Below are positions 7,538-37,171 of a DNA stretch of 64,000 nt, in pieces. Position 1 is the stretch's first letter, and each line of letters begins with the position of its first letter. The stretch is from Fimicolochytrium jonesii (taxonomy: Eukaryota). The stretch lies in assembly GCF_025526975.1 (NCBI RefSeq), contig NW_026515693.1, forward strand, positions 1 through 64,000, written 5' to 3'. A model generated the notes under the pieces. The model was not told where the DNA came from. It worked only from the letters and a program-made list of their open reading frames with translations, and made no database searches. The position numbers and the translations under genes were made by a program.

Positions 7538-8689
7538 TTACTGATGCATCAGGAGGATTTGTCGAACCCGTGCGGCGGAGTCGCTCACCGCTGCCATTTT
7601 CTCCACAAAAGTCCCGTCTGCCATGGAGAGCCTCTCCATTGCGGTGTCCGCGTCTAACCCTGGATGAACATTGCTCAAGTTCAAGAAGCGAAGATTGCCA
7701 TCCCGTATCACCGAGAAACGATGAATTGACGAGCCCAAATCGATCCCGTTAGTCTTGAAATTGACGGGAATATGTCGCAAAGTGCCGTCATCGAAGACTC
7801 CATTCTCCGGATCATGCTCTGTGTCCGGGGTAGCGTGACCAGACAGGAAGTCGAACCCTATCAAATCCACCTTGTTCCTCATAAGAGGAATGACTAGTTT
7901 TCCGAGGCGAGACGAGTAGAGGTTGTCGCCGTTGGTAAAGAGAATGTACTCGCAGGCCGGCAGGGTGGATGATTTGGGATGGGCTTCAGCGTGCACAAGT
8001 CTGTCAATAACGGCATCTGTGTACGCTGGCAAATGGAAGAACATTTCACAATGAGCAATAAGCTAGACGGGTGGAGGCGCATCCGGAGCGGCGAGGGTTC
8101 ACTAACCGTAACCATAGTCCGTCACATTGTCTTTGAGATGCGGATAACGTTGCTCGGCTTCCTGGCGCGGGATATTGACAGATATGATGGAAGTTTTGCC
8201 TTTCCCCGACAACTTTGCTAGGCGCTCCGTGTCTGTAATAACATCATCTAATTTCCGCTGCTCTTTTGAGGAAATTGGCTGCGTAACTACCAGGAGTACT
8301 GTTGCTGTGAGCGGAGGATTGTCAGGAAGGGCCAGGCTGAGCAAAAAAGCCGGCAGATATGCGAACTGCTTCGAATATGTTCTCGCAACGATACAAAGAT
8401 GTGGTGAGGGGATATCAGAACGATCCCAATCGCCGAAGGGTGGCGGGGGATTGTGCCGTCTCCAGCGTAATCTTCCAAAGATGACAGACTTGACAGTGAG
8501 CAGCGTGATGGAGAGAAGCATGAAGCCGGCGACAAAAGTCTGAAAGTATCGTTTCACTGCGCGACTTCGTGATTGGCCCCATGCCGGCTTACAGCCCCTC
8601 CTGTAGTGGATACGTCTTGATAAGAAGAAGCGGGAGTACGGGGCTATATTATCGGGACTAGGAGCCTGCTCTAGGTTGATGTAAACCAT
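7538..8689 (-). CDS. Type II membrane GT-A-like putative glycosyltransferase (TNGDN family), 2 exons
   Basis: TM segment FVAGFMLLSITLLTV; intron about 8107-8027 joins DYGY-AYTD in frame; YILFTNGDNLY, IDLG, C-terminal LLMHQ; homologous to the domain at 14430-15410. Confidence 0.75.
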
Positions 8690-10511
8690 GTCGTTGCGAT
8701 GGCAGCGTTAGAGCGTGTTCTTTCCGGTGGCGGGTAAGGTGGGTTGCTTTACGACTCTATCTATCAACCGGACTCGGACCACTACTAGCAGGACTTGCAG
8801 CTGGCGACGCGTCCCGTGATTACGTGATTATGAACACACACGAGAGCGGACGCAACAAGTCTTTCGAGCGAAGGAGTCCGCACCGCACCGGCGCTCACGC
8901 ACGCCTCCTGAATCCACACAAAAAGCTCTTCGCTAGAATAGTTGCGGGTATTTTCTCTTCGGATTCCTTGCGTTTTCACCTCGTATCCTCATCGAAAATA
9001 AATTGACCTCAAAGGGAAGGTCTCCCAATCTGTTCACGTGCTTTAGTATGATTTACCTGCACCGAGCTTTCAAGTAGCACTCCGCTCATGCTCGCATTCG
9101 CCTAGCTTTGCCCTTCTTCGGGTTTTTCATGGCATGCCCAATCCTTTGGGATCACCCATGTTTTGCCAGTACCTGGTGTCATTCCCAGACGTGGAATATG
9201 ATCATATAGTCAATTGACTTCCACACATCGCCAACCCCGAAGGATGTGAAGAATGGAATGGTGCGAGAGAAGCTTCGCCAGCTTGACGGAAGCGCGAGTT
9301 ATCATGCTGATGTAAGCTCGTCGCGTACCCGCATACCCGGTTCCCAACAGGCAAGGCCAAGATGCGCTGTAAATGTCCATCAACCATCAGGGATCCGACT
9401 GACATCCAGATTCCTCCTCGAAAACGGCTGAATACCACATACATTTCACTCAAAGGTGGGAGGCAGCTTTCTCAGAAAAAAAAAAAAGACCTTTGCCCGC
9501 ATGGGTCTACCACCGGCGCACAGTCAGCCGGCTTCCGCAGGATTCTTCTCGTGAGTCTTGTTTTTGAACACGATGATGTTCCAAATGTCGTCCTGACCCT
9601 CGTCCCCTCTGTGTGTTCCCACAGACGATGCACGTGGTGCACCTCGCCTACTCTAGCAAGGCGACTAGCGGTCGTGACGTTCGTCGCGGTGGCCACAACA
9701 TTCATATCGCTCCTCGCCTTCCTGACCCTGCGTGAATTCCAGTCGCTCTTGCACGCGCCTCCAGGCCGGCTGCTTATGCCTACCAAAAGCGAATAGGGGA
9801 GAGAGAGAGCTCCCATTTGAATCGGGGAAAGCAGCCGTAGTTGGATACTCCCCATGCATATAGTCGTCGGGGATTTGAGTGAGTGTGAACAACACACGCT
9901 GTTCACACATCCCACGGAGCGGAGTCTGTAACAGCTGTTGGGGTCGCCAGCCTGTACGAGGAGAGCCGAAGTGAGAGAGGAGTGGTTTACGACTTGTATA
10001 TTCCCAGGAAACCCGTGTACAAAAAAGCCGCATCTATAAGGAAAATGGGCACCTCTCCTATCCGTGAGCGATTCCCGATTGTAGCCCCCTGCTCGTGCTC
10101 TCTGTGTTGATTGCCCGCGACACTCGGTGGGTCTTGTATGCATATGCAAGGCGCATACCGGGGCTTGATTTCGCGATTCCTGACAATTGGCTGGCCCCGA
10201 CCTCCAATCTGTCCTGTCTACTATAGAGATATGGTATATATCGTAACAATATTGAAGTTAAATGAAGCGGCGCAAGAGGGCTGTCCCTGAATAAGACGCC
10301 GGAAAGATTGACGTCGTTGATCATGCTTTTCGAAGCTGGCGCCTGGCATAGATGAGTGCCGTTCACCTATTCCTGGTGCGTCTATTCTATATGTTCCTAC
10401 TCCTAGATACGTCCGCATGTCACCTCCTCCTCCCTGTTCATCTCCGACGTGAGCAGCCCCGCCACCCCATTGTTGCCGTGGATGACGTTGGAGGTATACA
10501 TTCCCTCATTT

Positions 10512-12117
10512 TTACGCCGCGGGTTTCTGACACAGAACAAACATGTGCAGATGGATTCGGTCGACGACAACGAGGTTCAAGCCGGCCCATTTGCAGACTT
10601 GCTCGAGGAGTTCGTAGCTGAAGACGTGCTGATGTATGCCGCGAACATCCTGGATAGGAACGGTAATGAGTGGGTGCGTCAGTGTCTCGCGGCACAACCT
10701 CGAGTACCCTCGCGGAAGTATCCTTACCTCATTCCTCAAACTCCTAGACCTAAAATGCGCCAACGTGCCTGCAGGCGCATCCATTGAGAGATCATGCAGC
10801 ATCATGATTTCATCAAAGTGCTCGCTTGGCTCGTGCTCCTGTGTTCCGCGCTCGTAGTGGGAGAGCAGGTCCGACATGGGCGTGTAGTCTCGGTATTGAT
10901 CGAAGCAGAGTTTCTTGTACGGGAGCACTAAGAAGAGATGGCTGTAGGAGTGGGAGGGACAAATGTCGTGTTAGGAGGCGGAAGTCTGGTGAGGAGGGCG
11001 GGAATGACAACGTACCCGCCCGGTTTCAAGACGGAAACCATTTGAGTGACAGCGCGAAGCGGGTTGGCGATATGTTCCAGCATGTGGCAAGCGGCTACAA
11101 AGTCATAAGGTTTTCCAATCGCACGGAGCTTCGACATATCGGTGACATCGACGACATGCTGGACGCCCATCTCCTTATTGGGATGCCACTGGAAGGTCTT
11201 CTGGCCGTCCTTCAGCTCATTCTCCCACAGCGTTGTTGCAGCAAAGTTGGAATTGTCAAGCGACGAAATGACGCTATAGATAGGAAGTACGTTGCGGAAC
11301 GGGTCTGATGATCCACCGATCTCTAATCCGTTTTTGCCGCGGAGGGTGTTGAGGACGGTATGGAGCCCGACATTTTTCTCCGGCATGTCATCGTCGACTA
11401 GGTTGGGCGGGATGATCAGGTCGGTTTTGAGGAAGACGAGACCTTCCGCTTTTGTGACGACGTCAACGGACTGGGTCGTGTCGATCCCGCGGTAACTGTA
11501 AGTAACGTCGAGGGCCAACGCTTTTGCGTCCCCGAAATGTTCATAAAGATTAACTTGTGTTGAAATTCGCAGTCGACGACCTAAGGGAGGGATGCGAATG
11601 AGGAGGGGAAAGTATGATTGGTCAGTCGACCGCCCAGTATGATCACGGATGGTGCATGGAGCGACGTCCTGGTTTCTTTGCCCGCAAAGAACAAAACTCC
11701 CACTTCCCTTCCTCCCGCTTACTCACCGATATGCAACTTTTTCACTGCTCTCGTCACATCTAGTTTCGCTTCCCCATCCCTGTACCAAGCCTTGAGAATC
11801 ACGGGCCTATCATTTGTCAATTTCGAAGGAAACGGGTCCGCACTCCCAGCGCCAGCACTTGAAGGAGGAACTACCAACGTCCCATGGGAAACAGTCTTCT
11901 CGGACACGACACCGGGACCATGGTGTGATGGTGGAATAGCGGCAGCGGCGGCAGCGTTGTTATTACTGTTTGAGAGACGAATAGAATTCGGGGCGGTTGT
12001 TGTTGTTGTTGTAGCGAGAAAGAGGGAGCGCAGAAGGACGCCGATGACGAACAGCAAGAGGATTGCCCTAGCGGGACGGGTAGCGAGGAAAGAGCCGCAG
12101 CGGGTGGCAGGGTTCAT
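10512..12117 (-). CDS. Membrane-anchored class I SAM-dependent methyltransferase (Methyltransf_11-like), about 4 exons
   Basis: N-terminal TM; GLEIGG, YDFVAACHMLEHIANP, VLKPGG-HLFLVLP; introns about 11725-11583, 11015-10942, 10726-10649. Confidence 0.8.
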
Positions 12118-12685
12118 GGTGGTCGGATATCCTTAGGAGAGGGTGGATATATCGTTATGGGAGGGGTTTAGACGATGGCAGTCCGTGAATATATACTTTT
12201 TCCCAGAGGGAAGAGAAAGGGAAAGCCGCACTCGACCGGAAGCCTCACTTCACCCCAATAACCATGTGGTGCGTGTCCTTATTCCACTACCTACATCTGT
12301 ATCAATACACGCGCGACTCTAATAATAAACAACGGCAGATCATTAAAGGATCAATAAATACATCGCGTTTCAAACGTATGCGGCCACATACGGATCGCAG
12401 GACTCTTCGCAGAGAGGGGATCTGCCGCGTAAGCTGAGGGGGAAGACGCGCAAGGGGTGAACATTGAAATGGACTCGAAAACACTCGATTCGAATGGACG
12501 ACCAAGCAACAGACCTGTATGGACACTCTAATTTAAAAGGCTCCGTTCATCCGTCCGTTTGGCGGTTTGCCTCTCTTGTCTTTGTCGTTTTGGGACCTGC
12601 ATGCGCCTGCTCGTTACCGTCTGGTCAGCCGCTACGTTGGACTGTTGAGATCCGCAACTTCGAAAATCCTCACACCATCGTAGCC

Positions 12686-15410
12686 ATGTACATCCGTCGC
12701 CGACTTCGTCCGGCATATTGTACCATACTTATGCTCCTCGGAGGAGCTATTGTAATTTATGAAAGCACATCGGCGGCTTTATCTTTCATATCTCGTCATC
12801 GACCCGTCCATAAGTACGAGTCCCACATCGGTGTCCCCCTACCATCTAACCACGTTTACAACCATACTGCCAAAGTCTCCGCCAATGCTGGTGCACTGGC
12901 GGCTGCCGAGTGGCAATCGGGTGCACTACGGGAATTGCAAGAAGCGACTTCAGGTATAGCCGTGTGGCTTGCAAGTTCGCTTTCCTCCCCTGCTCACCCC
13001 CAGTGCTTTCGTACAAATCCAGTGTCAGCAAGGAATATCAAAGTTCTTGGGTTTGTCTTTCCGCAGTTCCATCCAATACCAGAAAATAATGCTTTTTGGG
13101 GCCCCAACTTCACGGAATGGGTTAACGTCAGAAAAGCCAGCAAGAACAAGTTTGGCATGGAGGTCCCGCAACCGGAATGGGGCTACTACAATCTTCTGGA
13201 CTTTGATGTTCGCAAGCGTATGGTAGGTATTGGCAGTTCCCTGCGCCTCCTGATGGGGTATGCTGCGCTTCGTCGCTAGGGCTCAAACGGTTGCATGCAT
13301 GAGTAGGGTGACTTCTTGAGGGATAAAGGAATGTACGGCATCGTAATCCACCACTACTGGTTCGAGCAGCGGCCGATCATGGATCGATTTGGGAAGGTAG
13401 GTTGGGAACTGCACGGAAGAGTCCGTTCAAATCCGGAGCTAACCACTCTCACTTCTTAGCAAATCCTTGTGGACGGTGAGCCCAATATGCCATTCTTCTT
13501 CAACTGGGCTAACGAGCCTTGGACAAAAAGGTATACATTGTGCTCCAGAGCTCATAAACGGATGCGTGTGATTGACATCCCACTTCTCTCGCAGGTGGGA
13601 CGGATTGGACAGAAGCGAAGTGCTGTTGCCGCAAAGCTACGGAGATGAGGTTACCTGGAAAGTGCACTTTGACTACCTGATGCCCTATTTTCTCCACCCG
13701 AAGTATATAAAGGTAAGGCCCCTTTGGCGCTGCTTTTTCTTCGTCCGCCGCCCCTTCATAATCTACCTCAATATCCCTTCAGGTCGGGGGCCGGCCAGTG
13801 TTTGCCATTTACAAAGCATCTCATATGCGGCATACCCTGGGCCCCATGATGGCTAAATTTAGACAGTGGGCGGTGGAGGCGGGCTTTCCTCCCGGCGGAA
13901 TAGAAGTCATGCAGGCCAACTGGCAGGACGACCCTGTAGATCCGAACGTAGATGCCGTATATGATTTTCAGCCTCACGCTGGCGGTTGGGACGCTGGTAA
14001 CAAGGCGCTCCCCGCAAAAAGACATCCAATCCATCACAGGTACTACTGGTTACGTATCTGTTTTCGAGGGATGAGCTCAGCAACAACTCCATTTTAGGGG
14101 CGCCATGGTATCCTGGGACAATACACCCCGACATCTCACCGACGGTGCGGCTAACATGTATCTGGGCTCACATCCATCGCGGTGGTACTACGAATTGGTG
14201 GACTTGATACAATCGATCGTTGCCGACCCTAACCCAATGGCATCCGAGAACTTTCTTTTCATCAATGCCGTGAACGAATGGGGTGAAGGCAACGTGCTCG
14301 AGCCGACCGTACAACAAGGTGACGCATACGCCCAATCCCTCAAGAGGGCGCTCCAATTTGCGCGCGAAACCGGGGGATTAGTGACAGCACGGGATTCCGA
14401 GGCATGGCTGCCCGCAGTTCCCCAGCGACCAGAGACCTGTATCCTTGTGCGAACGTACAGGGGTCACGAGGACGACCAGGTCTTTACCTTGCGCGGTCTG
14501 ATAACGTCCCTTCGCCGGTTAACCAATCCTAACTGGGTGGCGGTAATCTTCCCCACCGATATGTCTGACACCTCGTACTGGGATCGCTTGAGGGAGGACT
14601 TTGATGACGAACGCCTGACGTTCTACCACCCACCAGACAAAGTGCGCCGAGTCTACTCCACGAAAGACGCAGGATACCATGCGACTGACTACGTCCTGAA
14701 GAATCTGGAGAGGGCTTGCCCGCGGTGTGCCAGCGCTAAATGGCTGCTGGTCACAAATGGAGACAATATTTATCGCCCGGACACGCTTTCGTACTTCGAC
14801 CACCAACATGACTTCATCGGGCTGAACTTTTTCTCGCGCTGGGTCGTCCACAACAACGACCAGAAACATAAAGTCCTCTGGAGCGATAGGTGCGAACGAT
14901 TTCAGCAGGAGGTGAGTTTCTGTACTTTCTTTGAGGTCCATTTTGCCTTGATGAAGGAACTAAAGACATAGGAACGGGCACTGCAAGGATCACTGCTTTC
15001 GCCCATCTCCGGCTGTAGGAAAGATTGACTTGGGCGCCATGATACTGAATCTCACCAAGTTTCGTAAAACTGGTTATACGTGGTCGTCGTTTACGGGAAA
15101 GCATCCGCTCGCACAGGATGGGAAGATGGCCGAAAAGCTTATTTCGAACGGTTTCCGCTTCGCAAACGTCCCCGAACATGTGAAGGGCTGCCAGCTGCTG
15201 CATAATCCCAGCTATGCCGCCTGCCGGGGAATGGGGCACGTATGGTTCGATTCCCCTAAGTTTTCTGAGGCAACCTGCTTGAAAGGCTCCGACGTTCACG
15301 CTCTGTTCGATAAGCGGGGCGAAGGAGCGCTGGACGCCGACTACCTGCTCGCGAATGGACACTGCATTCGATATAGCAAAAAGAGGTACCAAGAGCTCAC
15401 ATTACCGTGA
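12686..15410 (+). CDS. WbsX-like (GH99-like fold) domain fused to a TNGDN GT-A-like domain, 7 exons
   Basis: TM anchor; FPQFHPIPENNAFWG, FTEWVNV, HHYWF, NWANEPW, WDNTPR, INAVNEWGEGNVLEP; then CILVRTY...WLLVTNGDNIY; six GT-AG introns restore the frame. Confidence 0.85.
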
Positions 15411-15679: not shown

Positions 15680-16212
15680 CTAGCCAGTAGGCCCTGCGAT
15701 GTGTGTAGTCCGTGCGCATTCCGCCCCTTGGAGTGTGTCTCCGAGATGTTCGCACTGTTTCGAAACCCCAATGATACCAGCTTGATACGCAAGTGCGACA
15801 TAGATTTGCTTGGCCATCATTGCGCTCCTCACAGTAAACGGTCCCTCTGCCTCCACTATTCTATTCCTCTTCGGTAGGTATACGCTGCCGACCTGTTGAT
15901 AATTGCGAAGCCCAGTAAAATCTTCGTGAACGTGAGGAAAGACATCAAGAATGTGACAACCGCGACGAAAGTTACAGCCGCCAGCCTTGTGCGTGTAGTA
16001 CTGGAGACGATGTATTGCATGCATCGCCCGTGGGAAGAGATACAAGGTTAGGACGATGGAACATAGAGATGTCAAGACAAGGCTCACAAGAAGAAGCCTG
16101 TCGATTGACGACTGTTGGCTGATGGTATGCCCATGCTGGCGAAGTTTGGCCTATGATATTTGCGGCTTACTGAAGTATAATATCGAGGGTTCAGGAGGAA
16201 CTTGGAATCCAT
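15680..16212 (-). CDS. Small or truncated type II membrane protein of unknown function
   Basis: ATG at 16212; a phase-0 GTAAGC...CAACAG intron joins to TM segment LLLVSLVLTSLCSIVLTLYLF; no recognised catalytic domain. Confidence 0.35.
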
Positions 16213-17326: not shown

Positions 17327-19559
17327 ATGAGGGCTGTAACAGACTTTTCCACGGCGTTCGCTTGGGTTACCACGGTGATCACCAGTTCGGCGGCGGCGCT
17401 GTTAATTCGCCTTTCTCGGAAAAGAGCGGGCGGTTCATATCAAGATTCCACCGCTATCATGTTATCGGAGAGCCTCAAGCTATTGGTGTACGTCATTGGG
17501 ATACGTTTTCAAAGGTCAACAAATCAAGCTACAGTTCCTGAGCAGGGCACTGTAGGTATGCGAGCGATCGTAAGTTGTCAAGGAGGTCCCAAGGTGCTAT
17601 TAGCTGCGGGGCTACTTTTCAGTCACAACTATTTGAAATTCATTGCCTCCTCATGGTAAGAAGCATACCGTCCTTAACGCTGGCGTATTGTTAGGGCGGG
17701 CAATGCCTAACCCCACCCTTTCTTCCACTTAGCCTGGGCGTTGCGCAAGTTTTATCCCTTAACCAGATGTCGATTTGCACCGCTGCGGTCTTCGCAACTT
17801 TCCTCCTAGGCCATGCCGTGGCCATTCGGGAGCGCTTTGCCTTAGCCGTTCTGGTTGTGGGAGCTATCATAGTACAGCTTCCTAAGAACCTGAACGGCCC
17901 TTCCGAGAATTCCTTTGGTCTATGGTCCGGGATTCTTGTTCCGTGGATATCTGGTTTTTTCGAAACCTATATGCAGTCTGCGAAAGTGTCCCGCTCGTCA
18001 CAGTTAGGGCTAAACCTGGAACTCAGCGTGTACTCCGTCACCCTCTCACTGTTCGCTGTCGCAGTGCAGAGCGGAGCAAAACTGCGGGAAGGCCAAGACT
18101 GGATCTGGAGCGGATACTCAGTGTGGACATGGCTGGCAATTGTTGCACATGGGTTGAACGGCCTCACCTTCTCGAATGCCCTTAACAGCCTTAGTAGAAC
18201 TCATAGGAACTCTGCTGGGGCGTGCGCCATGATTCTGAGCAGTTTCGCTGCAGTACGCATACTTGATGAAGCTTTTACGTTGTACGTGACCTTAGGTGGG
18301 TTCGTGAATTCAATAAGACAAACACGCATTTCACCGAGGGCTTACCGCCGTACAGGCCTGTTTTTGATCTTCTTCGCTACCATTCAATGCAACTGCTGGG
18401 ATAGCTTCAGTAAGATCGGAACCATATCTTACGGCATTGTCCGTAGCGACGGGACCTCCGCTAAACATTTCCGACAACGGAATGTGTCAAGATCGATTTT
18501 CCGGCCGATGCTGAGCATGTCCGGCGGGATATTAGTCATATTATTGGTGTGGACTACCAGGTGGACGTTCTTATATTCCGTGACTCCAGCGTTCTTGACT
18601 CCAAGCATCCCGTGCACCTTCAATCACACGGGTCCGCTACACGACGAAGATCTGAACTGCTTGATAGAAGTCTTTCCCTTCGCTACCCCGACGAAATTAA
18701 GGCCCGTCGTCAACGGCACTCACAAGATCAAAGGCATTTCATGGAATGATGGAACTCCTCCGTAAGTAATTTTGCCGCAACTATAGCTATCGATGCTCTC
18801 TTGACACCGCACTCCCGCAGTATTCCAATCTTTATTATGTTCAAGGATCGCGTATCCCAGCTTCTTGAGCTGATTCGCAGCTTACATCGGCACATCCTTA
18901 CGCCATTCGAGATCGTTATCATGGATCAGAATTCAACGTATCCGCAAGCGGTAAATTTTGTGAGCAGACTCGAAGAATCCGGTGTCACTATCCTGCGAGT
19001 GACTGATCCATGGAACACCTTCGACGAGCTCTACTACGTGTTTGTTCGTTTGCTTAACAAATACATGGAAACAAGTAACGCCAGCTACTACATCCTTACC
19101 GACCCCGATACCGCCCTTGATAATGCCCCTGGCGATGTGCTGCAAGTCTATCAATCCGTACTGGACGTCAATAACTTGTATAGCGTTGGGGCGGCCATCC
19201 GGTGGGACGACTTACCCGACGAGCTTCGCGATGGTCATATGATGTGGGAACAAGTGATGGTTACGTTACCTGCACAGTGCCATGTGTATCGGAGCGCATG
19301 CTATTATTACAATACCGCCAAAGTTGATACCACCTTCGCTATGTACAGAAAGGGTCAAACCCTAAAACGACTGGCCGAACCAACGGTACGGATGCTTCCA
19401 CCATTAGGGGTTAGGCACCTGGATTTTTATCTGTACGATAAGTCCATACAAGTACCGGATGATGTCGAGTTCTACGAAAACGCAGTTGCCGGAAACGGGG
19501 TTCACCACTACAGTCACGGGAACGAAATCGACAAGGGAAGCGAGGCGGTGTCGAGCTAA
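17327..19559 (+). CDS. SLC35A-like nucleotide-sugar transporter fused to a GT2-like glycosyltransferase, 4 exons
   Basis: STAIMLSESLKL, LNQMSICTAAVF, SGFFETYM, GYSVWTW; extra TM; then IPIFIMFKDR, IMDQNSTYP, YYILTDPD, VDTTFAMYR. Introns about 17656-17732, 18296-18355, 18762-18820 keep the frame. Confidence 0.8.
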
Positions 19560-20679: not shown

Positions 20680-22225
20680 ATGATGGCCGTCAGATCGTTC
20701 ACGACACGGAAGTCCACGATCATTGCGGCATTAGTGCTCACAATGACCGGATGTGCACTTGTTTCGGTGCCCTCAAGGGACATGATTTCGTCTACAAGGG
20801 AACCAGCTGGCGGCATGATCCCCTTTTGGGCTAGTGCTCCCAGTAGCAAGGCGGATATCGTCGACAGGTATACTCGTTGCCTCACCCGACCTCCTAGTGG
20901 TGCTGTCATGTACAATACAGAACGATGCTGGAGTGACATCTCAACGTATGTCCTGGACTTTCCTCAGAAGATAAACATCGACCGGCTCCACAAATGGCTG
21001 ACTTCCCTTCCTGCAGTGAGATTTATATGGATGTATTGGCCAGAATCGAGGATTCGGCCCCGACCGAGCTTAGTCGTTTTCAGATTGCCGAAAACCAATT
21101 ATATTTGCCAAACTGGCAACCATTTGATTTATTCAAGCCTACATACGAGTGCAACGCCATGGACCTGCTCAGGTACAGTACGCTATATCTCCCATGCTGT
21201 TGATTGCACGTTTCTGCAACCTTCTAAAATCTTACATGGCTTTTAAGGATCGGCGAACCTTCGAGGAAGTCGGACAGTGGGAAGTGGCTTTGGTAATTGA
21301 AGACAACAGTGTTGACCCTGGCATACGAGCTCTAGCTAATATGACGCTTTAGCTCGGACAAGATTGAATTTGGCAATAAATGTGTGATCTTCTCCGTCGG
21401 ATCGAACAATCAATTTGATTTCGAAGTCGAGATGCACGGCCATTTTCCCAAATGTGAGGTACGTATGTATGCGCGTTACGGCCGGCATGCCCTTGAGACG
21501 CAAAATGCTGAAGGGAGCTTGTTTTGTTGCAACTTGCAGATTCACACGTTCGACTGCACCGGAGATTTCAGCAATCCATCCACAACATTTCACAGAACGT
21601 GTGTTGGAAGGGAGGATGTGAAAACCGAGAAAGGGGCCTTCAAGCGCTTGTCAACAATCAAGAAGGAGCTAGGGGTCAACACAGTGTCCTTGCTCAAGAT
21701 GGACATTGAAAAGTATGTGGTTTTGCGGCAGCAATCACTCTCCCGTTGTGCTGATCCCCGGATATCAGCTTCGAATGGCAGTTCTTCTTAGACATGCTAG
21801 ACGAACCAGAGGATAGTCGGCCAATGCAAATACTTGTTGAGTTTCATATTCGCATGGAGCTGCATGACCCCACCGGAAAATTGATGCCCTACCCCTGGGA
21901 TCTCGCGCCCACCCTCTTTGAGGGTTGGAATCGAAACTGGGCCATCCCAATCGCTCGAATGGTGAAAGTATTCCACCAGCTTGGGTATAGGATAGTTTGG
22001 CAGGTACCGATATGATGACATGTCCCTGAAAGGTTTCGAATGGCTTCCTATATTCTACGTTTATACTTACCTCTCCCCTTCCCGACTTCGTTTACTTAAT
22101 CAGGAAAGGTAAGGACGCTCCTTGTTGATATCCCGGAACCTGTTATTGACGTCTTATCCTTATACAGGAACCGGTGGGGAGAATTCGCCACGGAACTTAT
22201 TCTCGTCCATCAACGAGCCTTATAA
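20680..22225 (+). CDS. Membrane-anchored Methyltransf_22 (METTL24/FkbM-like) methyltransferase, multi-exon
   Basis: TM/signal segment; FKPTYEC, DSGKWLC, CVIFSVGSNNQFDFE, IHTFDCT, LLKMDIE, QILVEFH; about 7 introns. The start could be 20632. Confidence 0.8.
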
Positions 22226-22931: not shown

Positions 22932-24103
22932 TCAGGCAGTGCCGCGGAGCGGTGGCCCAGACACATAGTACGGGCAAGAGTTTTTGTGGATGCCGAGCAT
23001 GTTGTCGTGCCATGTGCTGTAATGATTCAGCGCATTATCATCTTGGTTGACCGGAATGGTGAGAAAACAGATAAGTTCATATGTCGGCCATTGTTCGACG
23101 TATTTTTACAGCCATGGTCATACCAATGCCCCGGTTCGCTTTGATGAATATGAGCTCATACGGGTGGAAGCTCATGCCATAGTAGCGATCCCGAAAATTC
23201 ATGTCGCCGGAGTCACAACGATCCGGGTCACCCGTGGCAGAAGTCATCAGCGCATCCACTTTGTAGCCATTGGTCTCCAAGATGCCGGTCAAGGGAACCT
23301 CGCCCATATGAACTGCATCAGTGATTTTGTCCGGGCAAGGCAATGTTGCGGGCCCAACCGCATATCCAACCTCATCGAAGGCCAATACCATACTCTGCAC
23401 GTGCCGGGAAACTCCATGCATATTGCAATAGACCGTCGTCCCCACCATTTTGACGTCATCTGTGAGGCGATCGAGGAAATGATCGATCCAGCACCCTCTA
23501 TCGTATAGTGGAAGAAAGGGACCCCGCACCGATGCGTTAATCATTATGTACCGTCGGTAGCGGCGATGTCTTTTAGCCATATACTCTACTCCTTGGCGGA
23601 AAGAACCCAAATCGTAACATCTGCAGAGAAGTCGATGAGAGAAAAGGAAATAGGCAATTTTAGCTTCCCATTTTAGGTTAGGCAGCCATGGAATTTGGCA
23701 TGACACCTAACAGGACCCCAGACACATACTTGTTCTCTTTTCCCCACACGAAGATGTTTGGCAAGTTGGGAAACACCACGCCTTGAGGTGTGGGACTGTT
23801 CATAACGAACAGGTAATCGGCATTGCTTTGCAATCCATGACGTAGGAAAAACTCCAAGTTGGCTGTCTGCTGTGGTCTGTTCCGGGCGGCGTCTGCGGCG
23901 TTGAAACCATTGATTGTACCCATGCTTGCGCGGAAGGATTCATCTTCCGGAGTCATGCTTCCGTCGTAATAGACGTACACAATTAGAGGTCGAAGCATAG
24001 ACCTCCGTAGCGTCCTATAGAATATAAAAAAGGCGATGGCGAGCGCAATCATGCTTGCCCCCGCTAGCACTCGGCGAGGGACGAGTCGGCGAGGTTGGAA
24101 CAT
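22932..24103 (-). CDS. RgpF (rhamnan synthesis F)-like putative glycosyltransferase, 3 exons
   Basis: TM anchor; LIVYVYY, NLEFFLRHG, ENK-CYDLGSF, INASVRGPFLP, HVQSM, HPYELIFIKANR. Confidence 0.7.
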
Positions 24104-24572
24104 GTCGGACGTAGGTTATTGCTATCCAGGCGAAAGCTAAAACGAGCATATGGAAGAAGACAAGCAAATCGTTGAATTCATGTGATATGGGCGAGGGCAG
24201 TGCTGCACATATACGTATATAGGTGGCGGAATTTCAGCACGTTGGCAGGAAGCAGGCACAGCCCGGGCTTGCCACTTGATTGCTTTGTCAACAGTCGTAG
24301 AACCCAGTACTGCCCGTCAGTGGTGCATCTTCAGAACGCGTCGGTCGGCATGCGTTACATAATCATATTTGCACGCGTATTTGCCACGAAAAGTGCCCCG
24401 GCGAGGCTTCCTTGTGCAGGCGGCTTTCCATTTGGAAATATACTGTATATATATACATATATATATCACCGCACCCGCGTCCGATCACTGTGCCGGTCAA
24501 CTCTTCACCCTGCTCGCAACCTTTACTTCGTCCATCCACAAATCCTGCGCTACACCCCAGAAGCTACGAGAT

Positions 24573-27298
24573 ATGCTTGAGGGACCCTCTACAGCCCGGG
24601 TGGCGGTGGCCGGAATAGCGTCCGTGATCACTACGATTTTCGAGAAATACGTTCTTTTGATCTTCCCATTTCCACCACTTCTTCTTCTTATGCAGCAGGT
24701 GCGTTGTGTGGCGACGTTCGCTTAGAACCCGTTCCAGCGTGTCTCATCTTCCGTAATAGGGTGTAATTTTGGGGATCAGCCAGTGCGTCGTTGTTCCGAC
24801 CCGTCGCAATCGAACGCTTCTGCATGACCAAAGCAAACAAGAAAAGGGCGAGCGTAGCCATTCCGAAGACTATAATACGGCGCCTGCCTTGCGATCTCGA
24901 CGATATCTCACGATCGGCCTGCGTTGTGTTTGCACAGTGGCGACAATGACGGCCTTATGGCTTAACACCCTTCGAAATTTTCAGCTCTGTCTGCTCTGGA
25001 TTCCAGCGTTCGGGTGGATTCTCAATTACACGTTTTTCTCATCTCGCGCATCAGTATCTGGGTCTGCTCGATCATCCGCGATTTTGCCCATTACCATGCT
25101 CATAGCAGGTTTCAGTCTGTTGATCGACGGCGGATCGCGAATGGAAGCGCTTTGGACAGGGATATGGGCAGCGCTACTTATTGCGGTGACGGACGCGTAT
25201 ACAACACATTTCTCGCTCGAAGAAGATTCAAATGCGTTGCAGCAAGCTCAAGCTGCCGTACCGTACATGGCAGGCATCTCGCTGGTGCTCTCTGTATTCC
25301 AGTGGGGCTTGATGGATTCCTCAAACTTTAGCACATTGGTTATCGCGAGGAAGGATTTGTGGGCCGCTTGCGGGACATTAGGCGGTTGTGCCGCCGTATG
25401 GGCAGTATCGCTCTATCTCTCTGCCCAAATTCAAATCGGAGGCCACAGCGAAGCCTTTTCGAGTCACGCACAAGCTTTATGTGTGATTCTGTACACCTTC
25501 TTCAGCCATGGAACGGGAGTCGCGTCTTCGTATGACCGAGGGTTGAAAGACGCTTTTGGTTTGCTGCTGGTAGTTCTTGGGATGGGCATCGATATATGGG
25601 CTAAGAAGCATCAAAGCCAGGAGATTAGGTAAGGACGGGCGTGTAAGTCTTGAGGGCTGGCAAGAGTCGTTTTAGACGGCCATTCATTCTCGCCATAGTT
25701 CCTTCCCACTCTAATATTTGTTCTGTCTCCTTTGGGTTCCGTTTGGATTACAATCAACTTCCAGTCTTCCTCGGTCAGCCGCCGCTATCGAGCGAAATCG
25801 GAAAGTCGGATTATTAAATATCATAGTTATAGTAATCCTCGGAGGTGCCTGCGGACGAGTCTTTCTAGGTCTTCTCAAGTAAGTTACAAGACGTCTACCA
25901 GGCTCTTCCTGGGCGAGAGGTTGACAACAACTTGCTGTCACTCAAACCCGCATGTCCCTTATTCGCATCGCGTTACAGTTCACATTCAATGGCGCCGTCT
26001 ACGGGCCGATCGCCGCCTCTAGACCACAGTAACAAGCTTGCCCTAAACATAAATCTTAGCGGCGGCGAGCATCTGAAACTCTATGTCCCGCCCTGTCCTC
26101 GCCTGGCGCCTGAAAGAGCGGAGCCAGCCAAGCATGTCAACTGCCCCACGGAAACACTTCCCTTCTTCAATCGATCGCGTAGTGATGAGCCACGAATGGT
26201 TCGTATGAAAGGGGTAGCAGCGCCCCGAAGACTCTTCGACGTGTTTTATTTCAATACTGAAATGGAGATGCTCGACATCCGTCTGATGACTCTCTGGAAT
26301 GTCGTGGACTATTTCGTCATAATGGAAGCAGGATTCACATATACGGGAAAGGACAAACCCTTTATCTTTGGAGAAATGAAGGACAATCGATACAGTGCAT
26401 TCAAGAGTAAGATAATTCACATTCCCGTAGCCAACATGGATACGCCGGTAGACGATGGATTGCCGGATATACCCGCAAGTGGGGCCAGCAATGATTGGAA
26501 GCGTGAAAACGCCGTTCGCGATTACCTTCTCCGACAAGGCTTGAAAGCTGCGAGCCCTGCCGATGGCGACATTGTTGTGGTATCGGATCTGGATGAGATA
26601 CCGCGCCCGGACTATTTGCAGACTCTTAAGACTTGTCATGGTTGGGAAACCGTTTCCAAGCGCAAGGACAGGATTTGCATGAAAAGCGACATGTTCTACT
26701 ACAATTTTGAATGGATGCAGCCACATACGGCGTGGTGGCACCCTGACGTATACGTGTGGAAGGGGGACGGAACCATTCGAGGTACCTCCCGATGGGAGGG
26801 ACATCAATCCACCGAGGACATTGCATGCATAGATCATGCCGCGTGGCATTGCTCATATTGCTTTCCCACCATGGACTACTTGATTGACAGTAAGTCTCAG
26901 GAGTACCCACAACAAAGCGGTCACTGGTATTGAATCTCATCATATCGCATATATGCTCTGCATAGAACTCGGGTCCTTTTCTCATCAGGAAATGAACACT
27001 GAGCGCAATCGCAGTCCGCGTTGGATTCTCGGTAGCATGCTATCGGGCCATAATGTGTGGGATGAGGACGGGCATCCTTCCAATCAAAAGGTAAGAGAAC
27101 TCCTGGGGCAATCGAGTGACATACACCTTTACTGATCGCAGGTCATCTCACAAGGTTGCACCAAACTCTCCGACGTGGGTGGCCACGAATCCGGACTGTT
27201 ACGCGCACCTAATTGACCGTCGCTACGGGCTTACTGAACCATTGTGGTGGGAAGTTGGCAAATGGGGTGCTAATCAACTTGGACGACCGCTTTTGTGA
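24573..27298 (+). CDS. Divergent DMT/nucleotide-sugar-transporter-like domain probably fused to a GT17 (MGAT3-like) domain
   Basis: Multi-TM region 24573-25628; intron 25629-25763 leads in frame to TM VGLLNIIVIVILGG; intron about 25878-25978 leads to GT17 motifs FNTEMEMLDIRL, VVDYFVIME, VSDLDEIP, AWHCSYCF, SFSHQE. Confidence 0.7.
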
Positions 27299-29419: not shown

Positions 29420-30991
29420 ATGACCCAAAGACTGGAACGTGCGCTGTTCCTTCACGGGCGACTTCGCCCAAACCTATTGTTCGCGAATCTACTGCTGTTA
29501 TGCATCGTGATTGGGCTATATCTCCATCTTGCTGGACAGAGCCATTTATGGAGCTCTGGAACTGTGGTCAGTCATCCCCCCGGTGCGAACTCTTTGAATG
29601 TATGTAAAGTGGTAGATTATCTACACTTCAATTTACGTGTCTGACTGGCTGACACTATCCTAGTCGTTGGCTCCGATCAATTTACAGAGTCCCAACTCCG
29701 ATGCCGAAGTTCGGCGAAGGCGTTTCGACGCGCGCGTACATGAAGTTTTTGGAATCGCAGGGCAGGCGGCTTCTGGGCGGTCACATATAGCGTCGGAACA
29801 TGTTACACGACGATTGGGCATTAATCGCATGTTTCAGGACAGTGAGGCGCTGAATGTGCAGGCAAGAGCAGACCCTCCCTCTTTCCGCTGGGTGGTCTTC
29901 ACTTGCCACTGCGCGGGAGATATCGGCGGCCCGGACTGTATTTGTGGCGGTCTGGGTGATCGTTTGAAAGGCTGCGTCTCTGCGTACTATTACGGCGTTT
30001 TTACCAATCGAGCGTTCGCCATTAGCATGACGTTTCCGGATGACGTGCGAAGTTATCTTGTCCCCTCAAATTTGGATTGGAGCCTCGACCTCGCGAAACT
30101 TCACGGAAGAACCGAGGTGACAGTGAACTTGATTGATCCACCTGATGACGATAGGGCACTCCTGGATGGCCCTGACTCGTGGAACGACTACGATGTAGTC
30201 TATGTTCGGACCAACCGCGATCTTCTTAGCAAGATGCTCCAGAACCATTCATGGCAGCTTACAAGGGAGAAGTACTCATTGCAAAATTACCACCGCGAGA
30301 GTTTGGTAGGATCAGCGTTGCGAACACTTTTTCAAGCGTCCCCCAGAATGGAGCATATGCTTGAGAGTATCCGGAAGAGCATACCGAACTATCGGCGGCT
30401 CATCAAGATTGGCATTCAGTTCCGCGCTGGGGGACAAACTGGCGAGGGCGCATTTGAGCACGACACGGGCGGTCACAGAACCTCATTGGATATGGCGAAT
30501 TGCTTCATTGCTCGTGCTGTGCAATTTGCGCTGGACCGCCGCCTTCGAACAGATGAGGTCGTTTACTTCTTGACATCTGATCATGAAGCGATCCAAAGTC
30601 AGATGTCCGAGACCCTCAATGATTTGGGATACAAGACATTTACCACCACCGGTACGAGCCTTCTTCGATTCGCATCCGATAAGATGTGCAGTAATGAACA
30701 GTGTCCCATATTGCAGGCCCGTTGACACACATCGACAAGCCCGTTCACGAAGCTGGAGACCAATCACAAGAAATGAAACATCGGCGAACTTACATCGACT
30801 GGTTTCTTGAGGCGGAGATGGACTACCTTGTCATTTCCCGATCAGGTTTTGGAGAAACTGCTCATTTCTATACGCTGAATCCAACCGTACGGATAAGAAG
30901 CGTTGAGAACAACTGTGTGTTCGACAATTCTACCGACCACTCTTTATGGCCCGTCACTTCGAGCTCGAAAGGGGCCTTTATGACCGACTGA
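29420..30991 (+). CDS. Type II membrane GT-B fucosyltransferase-like protein (GT23/GT37-like), 3 exons
   Basis: TM anchor; CGGLGDRLKG, IGIQFRAG, YFLTSD, HIDK, DWFL...SRSGFG are fucosyltransferase-superfamily motifs. Confidence 0.75.
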
Positions 30992-33171: not shown

Positions 33172-36100
33172 TTAGGGTTTTCCATGGACAAACCTACGTC
33201 CGATAATCTTATCAACATAGTACTCTTCCTTGCTCTTGACTTGGACGGGCTCTGGGTTAGAGTCCTCTACACCGTCGATGCGCAGCGGATCTGAAGTCGG
33301 CTCGTGCCAAGGCTTCAAGATATCCGTATGGAAGACCGGGTATAAAGCGCCCATTAAAGCTGGCAGCTCTAACTCGTACGTTTCCGGGTGTGGTCCTTTC
33401 TTCTTCACGATGAAGGATCCCAGCTAGCTCTCTCTAAACTTGAGCGGCTTCTTATTGAAAGCAGGGATCGTTATCCCGTCGCTGTTCAACAGGACTTTAT
33501 CTCCTGGACGAAAGCTCTGTACACGACGTCCACGATCGTGATACTTTGCTTGTTTGTCCTGGGCTTCCCGCATCTTCTGCTGCACTATGAGCTCAATGGA
33601 TTGGTATGCCTCAGCACGCTTCTCCATCTGTCTGATGAGCTCACGTCGTGACTCATGCAAGAATGGGGTGGACGTATCGTCCTTACGTTGCAACACCTTT
33701 GTGTTAACTTGCCAATGCATTGGCGCCTGCGGAATTCTACCCAAAACAACCTCGAAAGGGCAGTATCCAGTGCTGTTCTGCGTACGGTTGTAGGCAAACT
33801 CCAACATCGGCAGTTTGTCAACCCAATCATCTCCCGTTACATGAAGGTACGGTTTAGTCATCTTCTTCAAGATAGAGTTACACCGTTCGACCTTTCCGTC
33901 CGTCTGTTGGTGTCGTGCCGTGCACAAGCTCTGCTTAGAGCCCAACAACGATTGAAACGCCTTCCAAAAGTCTGCCAGGTAGTGGGGATTTCGATCTCCG
34001 ACAATCACAGCTGCAGTACCTGTATGGCGCCATACCTCACGGAAGTAAAGCTGGGCCAACTCCTTGGCAGTTATCGTGGATTTTGCAGGGATAAAGTATG
34101 CGCGCCCTGACAGATAGTCAATGAAGACAATAATACTGTCGTAAAACGCATCACTATGCACCTTCCCCCCCACGACCGTGTTATTGGCATCGAGACAGGA
34201 TCCATACCCATCGTGTGCCAACATCGGTCGGGAACTGGGAGCGAACAAAGTAAGCCAACACGCTTATTGTTCGGCGACTTGAACCTTTGGCAAGACCCAC
34301 AAGTCTTGATGTACCTTCGCATGTCCGCGTCCATATTGGGCCAGTAAAACTCACGTAGGAGCTTGCCCAATGTACCTTGTACCCCCGTATGCGAGCCAGA
34401 GAGCAACGAGTCATGGTACGCCTGCAATACAGTTCCTCGTAAAGCAGCTGGCACATAGAACTTATCGTGGTACGCCTGCAATACAGTTCCTCGTAAAGCA
34501 GCTGGCACATAGAACTTATCTGGTACAGTAAACGACCATAGTCATCGATCGAAAAACGGCAATCGAATGTAGACTGTCGTTCCTTCGGCTGTGACAGCGC
34601 CTCTTTCCGCAAAGCAAAGTACTCATCAGCCTCCAAGGTTCGTATCCAATCCTCAAGCGTAACATTCCCCAAAGGAATATACTCAACGGACATCCCCATG
34701 GCCGCAGCGATTTCCACTCGCTTGTTACACTCGGCGCAGCGAGGAGCATAATAAGGATTACGACTCAACACATCCGCGACAGTGTTCCAGCGACCAGGTT
34801 GATATTCAATATCAAATTTGAATTGTTGCAGGAATTCAACCCATCGTGCTTGGCGATGGCTGAGGAAGGGCTGTGTCTGCAGCCAGACCAAACTAGCGTG
34901 ATCGGTGAACGCACAAAACGGGCGGTCATTTGTCCGATCCTGCAAGTAATGCCTATTCGCCTTGCATATGCTAACCAGAGCCAATAGCTCCTGTTCGTGC
35001 ACGGGGTAACGTGTTTCAGCGGGTTGCATCTTCCGCCCAAAGAAAGCTATCGGCTTTAACGGTGGCAGATTCTTAAATCCCTTCACTGAGGTAGGCAACG
35101 GTGATGGGTAATGCTCCGATGGATCTGACGGCTGGGCGAGCCATCCTCCTATTGCAAAACCCGATGCATCCGTGAACACGTATAAATCTCGCTCCGGGTC
35201 GTAAGACGCGAGCGTAGGAGCTGTAATAATAGCTTCCTTCAGCTTAACAAAAGCCGTCTCTTTGACATTGCCCCAGTGCCAAGGCCTTTTGCCCGACTGT
35301 AGCTCTGTCAATGAATACGCGATGCATGCATAACGATCGACATATTGACTCAGGTAATTTGTCAACCCTAAGAAAGATTGGACCTCTTTCTGTTTCGTAG
35401 GACGTGCAAAGTTTCGCACGGTGTCCAATTTCGAGGGTGCAATGGCCATCGTATCCTCCCCCAGGACATGGCCGCAGAATTCAAGCTCTTTCTGCATCCA
35501 TTTGCACTTGGACGGCTTAACATAGAGTTTGTGCTCGGCGAGAACAGCCAAAACGCTGTCCACATGAGCGATGTGCTCCTCGGCCGTTTCCGAGAAGATT
35601 AAGATATCATCCAGGTAAGATATGACATACGCATCGTACATCTTCCCCAATATCTTATTGGTTAACCGTTGGAACGTTGCTGGCGCATTCGTCAACCCAA
35701 ATGGCAAAACCAAGTACTCAAAATGACCAAACCGCGTCCGAAACGCTGTTTTGTCTCTATCAGCCTTGCGAACCAAGAGGCGGTGATACGCATCTTTGAT
35801 ATCAAACAAAGACTTGAACTTCTTTCCACGTACCCGATCCCGCATCTCTGCAAGATTTGGTAACGGCGTATGATCCTTTATCGTTGCTTTATTCAGCCCA
35901 CGATAGTCGATGCACATACGGAGACTGCCATCCTTTTTCTTAGCAAATAACACTGCCGTGCCCCACGGGCTCTGCGAGTGTTGAATCCAACCACGCTCAA
36001 GCATGAGGGTAACCTTCTCATTTAGCTCTTTGAGTTCGGCTTCGCTCATATGTCGTAAAGGATTATAGACTGGTTTCGTACCAGGCTCCAGCTCAATATG

Positions 36101-37171
36101 GAAATCATCCTCTCCTCTATCGGGCGGCAACTCGGCGTGCTCGACAAACAAACTATCCACGTACTTCTCGAAAGTTGGGTAAAGAAGGTGATCCGATGGC
36201 ACGCCCAAATCAACCTTCTGTCCTGTAGCTTCGCACATTTGAACCTCTGGCTCTGGTTCGGCGCGATCGCGTTCATCTGTGGGGACATAAGCTGGTGACG
36301 CATTCACTGCAGCTTCTATGTCCATAACGTATGCTATGTAACACTTCCCATACACCTTTTTTCGAGATAAGCAAGTGAACTTCTGATAGGTTACAATCCC
36401 TGCACTCGAGTCTTCTCGTTCAGGCATCGCCGCCTTGAATCTTTTAGACTTCTTTCTGATGTCAAAGGACCGCAGATCGGCCGCATTACAGGACGACTGG
36501 GATTCCAATTTCCTAGTTACTGGTCTGGCAACCAGGGTATGTTCAACTTCATCTGCACGGAATCGTAGAACAGGAATCTCGTCTTCTATGTGCTCGAAAC
36601 GAACATCGTCAAGCATATAGATCCATGGCAATCCCAGAATAACATCTACCCGCGGGGGGGCAACCACAAATGGAAGCGCTTCTCGCGAGTAGTGTCGTTC
36701 AGCTCCCCATAACCGAAGATCGCCACAAAATAACCTGTTGGCGTTGAATGTATGGCCGTCGTCGCCCCAGGCGACATCAATGGGCATTTCAGGGTTATAG
36801 GTTTGGAAACCATGTTTCGACACCCATCCCTGACGTACCATCAGTGTTGTGCATCCCGTATCGATCAGAATGCGGCAAAACTTGCCATTCAACCTGCCAT
36901 GAACTACAAATGCACAGCGTGCGATCAACGCATCGGGTTGCAGTTGCAGTGCTTCAGGCCTAGTCTTCAAAACGGTCTCAGTGTCGTCTGGCTGGCACAG
37001 GCGCGCCCCCGCAGCAGACGTATTGCCACAATCAACTAGTATACCATCAGCGGACTCAGGGCGTATAGCCTCAAGCTCCTCTTCAATGGACATCATTGCA
37101 CAATGAGACGAATAAACGGTGTCTTTATTAAACGTCTCTACTGAGAACCCTTTTTCTGACCAGCGCCCCAA
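33172..37171 (-). pseudogene. Element C pol (PR-RT-RH-INT-chromodomain), disrupted
   Basis: LIDTG, RMCIDYRGLN, PFGLTNAPATF, YLDD, TDAS, ELLA, HQQTDGKVER; frameshifts near 34520 and 34170, stop near 33424, chromodomain cut at the LTR. Confidence 0.92.

Follow-up and report, generated by a model that had tools for sequence, protein, structure and literature searches.

The closest described systems join a sugar transporter to a glycosyltransferase (GT) in two different ways. In mammals, Golgi nucleotide-sugar transporters (NSTs; SLC35A2, SLC35A3, and SLC35A4) form complexes with Mgats, B4GalT1/4, and UGT8, bringing a transporter and a type II GT together in one membrane (PMC9368800, section on these complexes); the same section treats it as an open question whether NSTs pass donors to particular GTs. 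In O. tauri, ostta19g00600 is a GT92 protein with a triose-phosphate-transporter domain, which likewise puts a transporter-family domain and a GT in one predicted protein, and the glycan gene cluster around it also has a Wbx GT and a methyltransferase (PMC5082852). In the part of that paper devoted to the cluster, the fusion is mentioned in passing and is uncharacterized.

Here, we analyzed a window of 64,000 nucleotides from Fimicolochytrium jonesii (NW_026515693.1, positions 1 to 64,000, forward strand), in which a sequence-only reading had proposed that an NST is fused in frame to a GT2-like GT. The mammalian complexes are non-covalent, whereas the link predicted in F. jonesii is covalent with a fixed 1:1 ratio, and the O. 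tauri protein differs in both transporter subfamily and GT family. Among the matches listed in a full-text literature search, with subscription journals outside its coverage, no description was found of this gene or of a natural SLC35A–GT2-like fusion, and the term-searched text of PMC5600933 and PMC6709370 held nothing relevant. The fusion design has precedent; novelty lies in which GT family is involved, in its having been fused twice independently, and in the erosion of the transporter. The reading that we favor, with a probability of roughly 55%, is that the fusion protein is made, that its transporter acts mainly as an anchor or as a weak carrier, and that its intact enzyme acts on surface glycans inside the Golgi lumen.

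Gene model and splice choice at exon 4

The features of the gene and its surroundings are collected in Table 1. The full frame, running from the ATG at 17327 to the TAA at 19559, requires removal of intron 1. Intron 2 is in frame and without stops and would, if left in, open a 19-residue gap in the alignment with Rhizophlyctis rosea described below. Intron 3, which the sequence-only reading had proposed, is present (59 nt, GTAAGT...CGCAG, phase 2); its removal joins CC and T into a Pro codon to give DGTPP-IPIFIMFKDR, and its retention would cause TAA to be read at 18763–18765. The proposed one-frame joint is borne out in the sequence, the register across it being that of the R. rosea protein and of stand-alone homologues, without a gap. 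Splicing of the four exons gives a predicted 678-aa product in which an 11th helix and a stem connect an SLC35A-type transporter to a GT-A domain.

Table 1. Features of the fusion gene and of the neighboring glycan-related genes in the window
Feature	Position	Strand	Remarks
Exon 1	17327–17655	+	Start ATG and transporter helices 1–3, residues 1–110; PF04142 E 7e-4
Intron 1	17656–17732	+	77 nt, GTAAGA...TTAG, CTAAC branch-like site at -26
Exon 2	17733–18295	+	Transporter helices 4–9; PF04142 E 7.6e-14
Intron 2	18296–18355	+	60 nt, inside helix 10; also removed in public model
Exon 3, 5' part	18356–18507	+	End of helix 10 and basic linker, predicted cytosolic
Predicted 11th helix, type II-like anchor	18508–18576	+	Best KD19 1.81, residues 344–362
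Predicted lumenal stem, conserved in GT family	18577–18761	+	Cys384/Cys399, sequons at 387 and 417
Intron 3	18762–18820	+	TTGAC branch-like site at -20
Alternative AAG acceptor	18843–18845	+	Gives 84-nt intron in public model, whose 441-aa product lacks GT
Exon 4	18821–19559	+	GT-A catalytic domain, 245 aa
GT-like frames	7541–8707	-	
Class I methyltransferase	10931–12132	-	
WbsX glycosyltransferase	12461–14968	+	
Methyltransf_22 protein	~20900–22100	+	
Type II-like gene	23080–24115	-	
Membrane protein	24760–25629	+	
GT17	25869–26930	+	E 1e-32
Weak fucosyltransferase-like frame	29664–30722	+	

It had also been noted that the GT exon has no leader of its own. This is correct but does not by itself prove a fusion, because a type II anchor is encoded in exon 3, where in-frame ATGs at 18508 and 18517 lie shortly before the 11th helix. 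The locus could thus hold two overlapping units, namely a type II GT of ~330 aa started at one of these ATGs and a transporter that is separate or decaying. Such an enzyme would be typical of its family, given that 19 of the 26 stand-alone relatives examined have an N-terminal hydrophobic segment, and a donor-like GTAAGA at 18410 could close the transporter by a frameshifting splice. The stretch from transporter to stem is, however, without a stop, and stops would be expected in a decaying separate gene; a terminator and a promoter would have to fit into only ~110 nt; and R. rosea has an open linker of similar length. The openness of the 33-codon linker is not significant when taken alone, as 1066 of 3666 intergenic stretches of equal length are also open. 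We consider two units decidedly improbable.

The public model of the locus (P0050; XP_052922599.1, Fimicolochytrium jonesii EV422DRAFT_209860, 441 aa) agrees with the 678-aa model at the start, in introns 1 and 2, and at donor 18762, and its exon 1 is identical. Its acceptor is 18845, which shifts the frame such that the protein ends eight codons on and the GT is dropped; splicing to 18845 in a script reproduced P0050 letter for letter. The acceptor at 18820 (CAG) is the first AG past the sole branch-like site found (TTGAC at -20), and for the acceptor at 18845 (AAG) no branch-like match lies nearer than this TTGAC. We infer that an acceptor that discards a 245-codon exon fits a transcript-based model better than an ab initio one, and a real alternative isoform without the GT is therefore possible.

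A stronger version of this idea is that the predominant transcript is spliced to 18845 or keeps intron 3, the full fusion being a minor or regulated isoform. The products would be transporters of 441 aa (18845) or 433 aa (retention) carrying a dangling helix and stem, the first of which equals the public model exactly, with introns 1 and 2 concordant. This version is at odds with the position of the CAG at 18820 directly after the branch-like site, with a stem that would be useless without the GT, and with the constraint on exon 4. Of the 86 columns that 21 reference homologues conserve, the GT half keeps 76 (R. rosea, 67/80); selection therefore acts on the exon, and some transcript must carry it in translated form. 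A predominantly GT-less locus appears quite unlikely to us, and we favor the full fusion, a reading that amends or qualifies the public gene model, from which the enzyme domain is absent.

The glycosyltransferase half and its fused and unfused relatives

The model of the exon 4 domain (pLDDT 87.1, pTM 0.86, based on 24 sequences) has a GT-A Rossmann-like fold. The best Foldseek matches were TarP (E 8e-8), CgT, SpsA (E 1e-6), and GnT-I, and VIA-align gave Z scores of 12.7 for GnT-I (rmsd 3.8, 178 aligned), 12.6 for B4GALNT1, 12.0 for POMGnT1, and 11.7 for SpsA, the top rows all being GT-A. No structural match stands out (TM ~0.45–0.5, 11–18% identity). The DxD pair (TDPD, 19098–19109), D94 and D96 in exon numbering, follows strand 4 and is, like D169, invariant in 24/24 aligned sequences; a DTTF motif at 19326–19337 is also invariant. 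A GT-A fold (predicted here) and the DxD are features in common with GT2 enzymes (SpsA, TarP/TarS), GnT-I, POMGnT1, and B4GALNT1. The family differs from all of these in lacking a solved relative at the sequence level, as the GT alignment matched no solved structure.

Assignment to a described family was attempted with several resources. Against PF00535 (Glycos_transf_2), exon 4 scored 14.5–14.8 bits and its R. rosea counterpart 22.4 bits, both under the cutoff of 23.3, and weak matches were obtained for 18 of 24 family members. Atlas returned GT2-like clusters (0.97) in which 14–29% of members carry PF00535; NCBIfam returned nothing meaningful for the GT, and no characterized member of the GT family was found. 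A fair label is “GT-A, GT2-like, family uncharacterized.” Relatives with ~25–34% identity are common in bacteria and phage. A bacterial origin of the GT is plausible, but the tree is unrooted.

Searches for relatives of exon 4 yielded 23 matches among 314 candidates and, in a second round, 27 among 367. The family comprises mostly single-helix eukaryotic proteins, with named records from Thoreauomyces, Kappamyces, Hyaloraphidium, and Nannochloropsis. In stand-alone homologues, a Cys-containing stem leads directly to strand 1 of the catalytic domain; exon 3 ends in the same stem, and the 59-nt splice restores this family register gap-free. In some further proteins, the same GT family is fused to a second, Pfam-positive GT2 domain (P0002, P0003, P0044, P0047, and P0049, from ENA/Logan), and in P0046 and P0077 it is paired with LicD.

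A search among longer proteins (3 matches among 1252 candidates) revealed the same fusion in Rhizophlyctis rosea HDV00_004736 (KAJ3034758.1, 514 aa), a single predicted protein model that begins at helix 4 and runs from helices 4–10 through a linker and a hydrophobic helix to the stem and the GT. Residues 119–637 of the spliced F. jonesii model match this protein in a single alignment with few gaps (197/528 identical, 37%; E 2e-112). The two GT halves fall in one 5-row clade (support 100/99). The two transporter halves, together with the Logan fragment P0062, are set apart from other transporters with support 94/87, a grouping whose certainty is weakened by long branches.

Another fusion came from a profile search against 1.84 billion representatives, of which the best 150 of 4676 matches were examined. 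The protein concerned, P0059 (609 aa, JGI/IMG, on a 4-kb contig), combines a transporter that is complete (PF04142 E 1.5e-67) with a helix and with a GT from the same wider family. Its GT lies in a distant clade beside two unfused sisters, and a topology that forced the three fused GTs together could be rejected with AU p = 2e-6, on the basis of a quick tree under LG+G4 with 71 rows, near-duplicates and short rows left out. It follows that this GT family has been fused to a transporter at least twice.

The proposal that the transporter and the GT share one frame is thus supported by an orthologous fusion in R. rosea. In the corresponding architecture search, 188 proteins were scanned; the GT profile and the transporter profile were each matched by 95 of them and both profiles by just 2, a scarcity that speaks against the fusion. 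In 191 loci, no transporter was found beside the GT; four marginal matches of 14–15 bits were dismissed, and just 7 of 14 eukaryote-type loci had more than 1.5 kb upstream. Among other transporter proteins, P0085 (Gonapodya sp., KAJ3342139.1, 811 aa) joins an NST and an additional helix to a long C-terminal domain without a Pfam match, and is a candidate for a further transporter–enzyme fusion.

A stand-alone GT paralogue, P0052, is recorded under the same species name as P0050 on a different contig and groups with Thoreauomyces stand-alone copies (support 96). Thoreauomyces HKX48_001062, considered as a possibly split orthologue, was rejected since it groups with this paralogue.

Asymmetric erosion of the transporter half

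The transporter half matches PF04142 (Nuc_sug_transp) with 84.4 bits (cutoff 27) over residues 13–307, covering profile positions 10–312 of 315, and aligns colinearly with the family; its hydropathy correlates with the family profile at r 0.53, versus 0.66–0.83 for five controls. It shares PF04142 with SLC35A2/A3 (transporters of UDP-Gal and UDP-GlcNAc) and the other SLC35A proteins, among which are its best PDB sequence matches (the CMP-sialic acid transporter of mouse, CST, 6oh2/6oh4, and the maize protein 6i1r). Compared with SLC35A proteins, the F. jonesii protein adds the C-terminal 11th helix and the predicted lumenal enzyme, and several key residues are changed.

The scoring covered 69 columns in which conservation among 89 reference transporters reached 80% or more. 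Of these, the F. jonesii copy keeps 30, the lowest number among 94 rows. The median of 93% for the references is inflated, since the references define the columns, and a fair comparison is provided by held-out rows, which keep 46/54 (R. rosea), 52/68 (P0059), and 61/69 (P0085) columns. Over the 54 shared columns, F. jonesii keeps 23 and R. rosea 46. The end branches of the transporter halves of F. jonesii and R. rosea measure 2.46 versus 0.68 (FastTree, 95 rows) or 6.84 versus 1.03 (IQ-TREE, 24 rows), and those of the GT halves 0.45 versus 0.53. Erosion of the F. jonesii protein is asymmetric.

Four mouse CST positions are changed, all in exon 2: K124 to S123, E196 to Q191, K265 to N261, and K272 to R268. 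K124, E196, and K272 are each 100% conserved in the 89 references, and K124 and K272 are both Lys in R. rosea and P0059. In the helix-3 motif, Tyr is replaced by Leu and Gln by His; we take these to be Y98 and Q101, based on motif spacing. Retained residues include the equivalents of E52 and K55 (E48 and K51, in exon 1), S188 (S183), N210 (N204), and presumably N102 (N101), whose equivalence was set by motif spacing as well. The changes affect sites that matter in related proteins. The phosphate-binding residues Lys124 and Lys272 are described as conserved across all SLC35A members (PMC8192872), and the mutagenesis passages of 10.1101/580449 report that Ala at the equivalent lysines reduces or abolishes CMP binding and that E196K abolishes transport. 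The Q101H variant halves transport according to the corresponding passage of PMC6508934.

The sequence-only reading had gone on to suggest built-in channeling of the donor sugar to the enzyme. For the F. jonesii copy this suggestion is unsupported, as residues important for binding or transport in CMP-sialic acid transporters are lost. A scenario in line with it, in which a working, perhaps re-specified transporter passes its donor preferentially or directly to the tethered GT, we place on the unlikely side. In its favor, the frame, the hydrophobic pattern, and the five pocket residues listed above are kept, and the divergence might then reflect an unusual nucleotide sugar as donor. Two independent fusions of the GT family, as well as the transporter–lumenal domain fusion in P0085, suggest a repeated advantage, and mammalian NST–GT complexes have been proposed to couple supply and use (PMC9368800, in the same section). 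This scenario is weakened by the replacement of K124 by Ser, E196 by Gln, K272 by Arg, and the helix-3 Tyr by Leu, by the reduced or abolished CMP binding of Ala mutants at the equivalent lysines and the abolished transport of E196K (10.1101/580449), by the ~120 residues of linker, helix, and stem that separate the domains, and by the unfused operation of most family members. Given the kept pocket residues and an Arg at K272, some transport may nevertheless persist.

A transporter half serving mainly as an anchor, as we prefer, fits the state of its reading frame. Transporter identity to R. rosea is ~30% and the frame is still open; when neutral substitution without indels was modeled down to 53% identity, just 1 of 2000 runs left the frame unbroken. 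An open frame fits a region that is kept translatable and membrane-embedded for the sake of a needed downstream enzyme.

For the R. rosea transporter, the sequence offers an indication of the donor class. It has Ala at S261 and, by ungapped register, Gly at Y214, where HMMER placed a gap. Gly/Ala at Y214/S261 is the pattern of UDP-sugar transporters in the relevant part of PMC6508934, which points to UDP-sugars as the probable substrates. Unfused enzymes, the canonical fusion of R. rosea, the independent fusion P0059, and the eroded-transporter fusion of F. jonesii make up a rare natural series, and a covalent 1:1 pair makes the question of donor hand-over testable.

Predicted topology and genomic setting

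The termini of SLC35 proteins lie on one side of the membrane, thought to be the cytoplasmic one (PMC6508934, structural description). Past helix 10, the F. jonesii protein has ~35–40 residues with 7 K/R, followed by the hydrophobic segment. The 25 residues flanking helix 11 contain 5 K/R before and 1 after the helix, a bias that recurs in R. rosea (3 versus 1), P0059 (7 versus 2), and P0085 (4 versus 2), and four sequons (387, 417, 470, and 519) and two Cys pairs are found downstream. A basic segment, one helix, a stem, and a catalytic domain constitute the pattern of a type II Golgi GT. We predict from these features an 11-helix layout with a lumenal GT. The earlier suggestion that one extra transmembrane helix would place the GT in the lumen agrees with the positive-inside linker, the sequons and cysteine pairs, the R. 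rosea fusion, and the side assigned to the SLC35 C terminus.

Under the favored reading, the four exons would be spliced to one 678-aa Golgi membrane protein. Its ten transporter helices would finish in the cytosol, and the stem and the catalytic domain would be brought into the lumen by the basic linker and the 11th helix, the latter probably being the enzyme's former type II anchor. The eroded transporter would be mainly an anchor and at most a weak or re-specified carrier. The fusion itself predates F. jonesii, as R. rosea has the same layout with a canonical transporter; its ancestral benefit was likely the co-localization of donor import and donor use, rather than a sealed channel. In F. 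jonesii, most of the donor would come from a lumenal pool supplied by other transporters, and the enzyme would likely decorate surface glycans alongside the products of neighboring subtelomeric glycan genes. In a bolder view, which we regard as a long shot, an undescribed GT-A family captured a transporter twice for direct donor uptake, the transporter of the F. jonesii copy has turned into a pseudo-transporter, a scaffold through which the enzyme is docked to functional transporters, and two acceptors 25 nt apart switch the enzyme on and off within a subtelomeric surface-glycan cluster.

The window begins at a chromosome end, with a telomere array at 1–66 (CCCTAA x 11), and copia-type RT fragments are found at 641–2305. 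The fusion gene lies within a subtelomeric glycan gene cluster that spans 7541–30722 (Table 1). The mix of genes in this cluster resembles the O. tauri chromosome 19 cluster (PMC5082852, as far as described there). The fusion family points to a chytrid glycan pathway that is unstudied. At 14075–15410, the WbsX domain seems to run on into a second GT-like domain, similar by eye to the GT-like frames on the reverse strand at 7541–8707; this is possibly a two-GT fusion. A 57-nt inverted repeat (9665–9721 and 15928–15984, 72% complementary, 6.2 kb apart), both copies of which code for a similar hydrophobic stretch, is possibly a duplicated gene start or a remnant. Farther inward, at ~34000–56000, a Ty3/gypsy-type element with a 998-aa pol frame at 34184–37177 precedes near-identical gag/protease fragments that recur with a period of ~4.77 kb.
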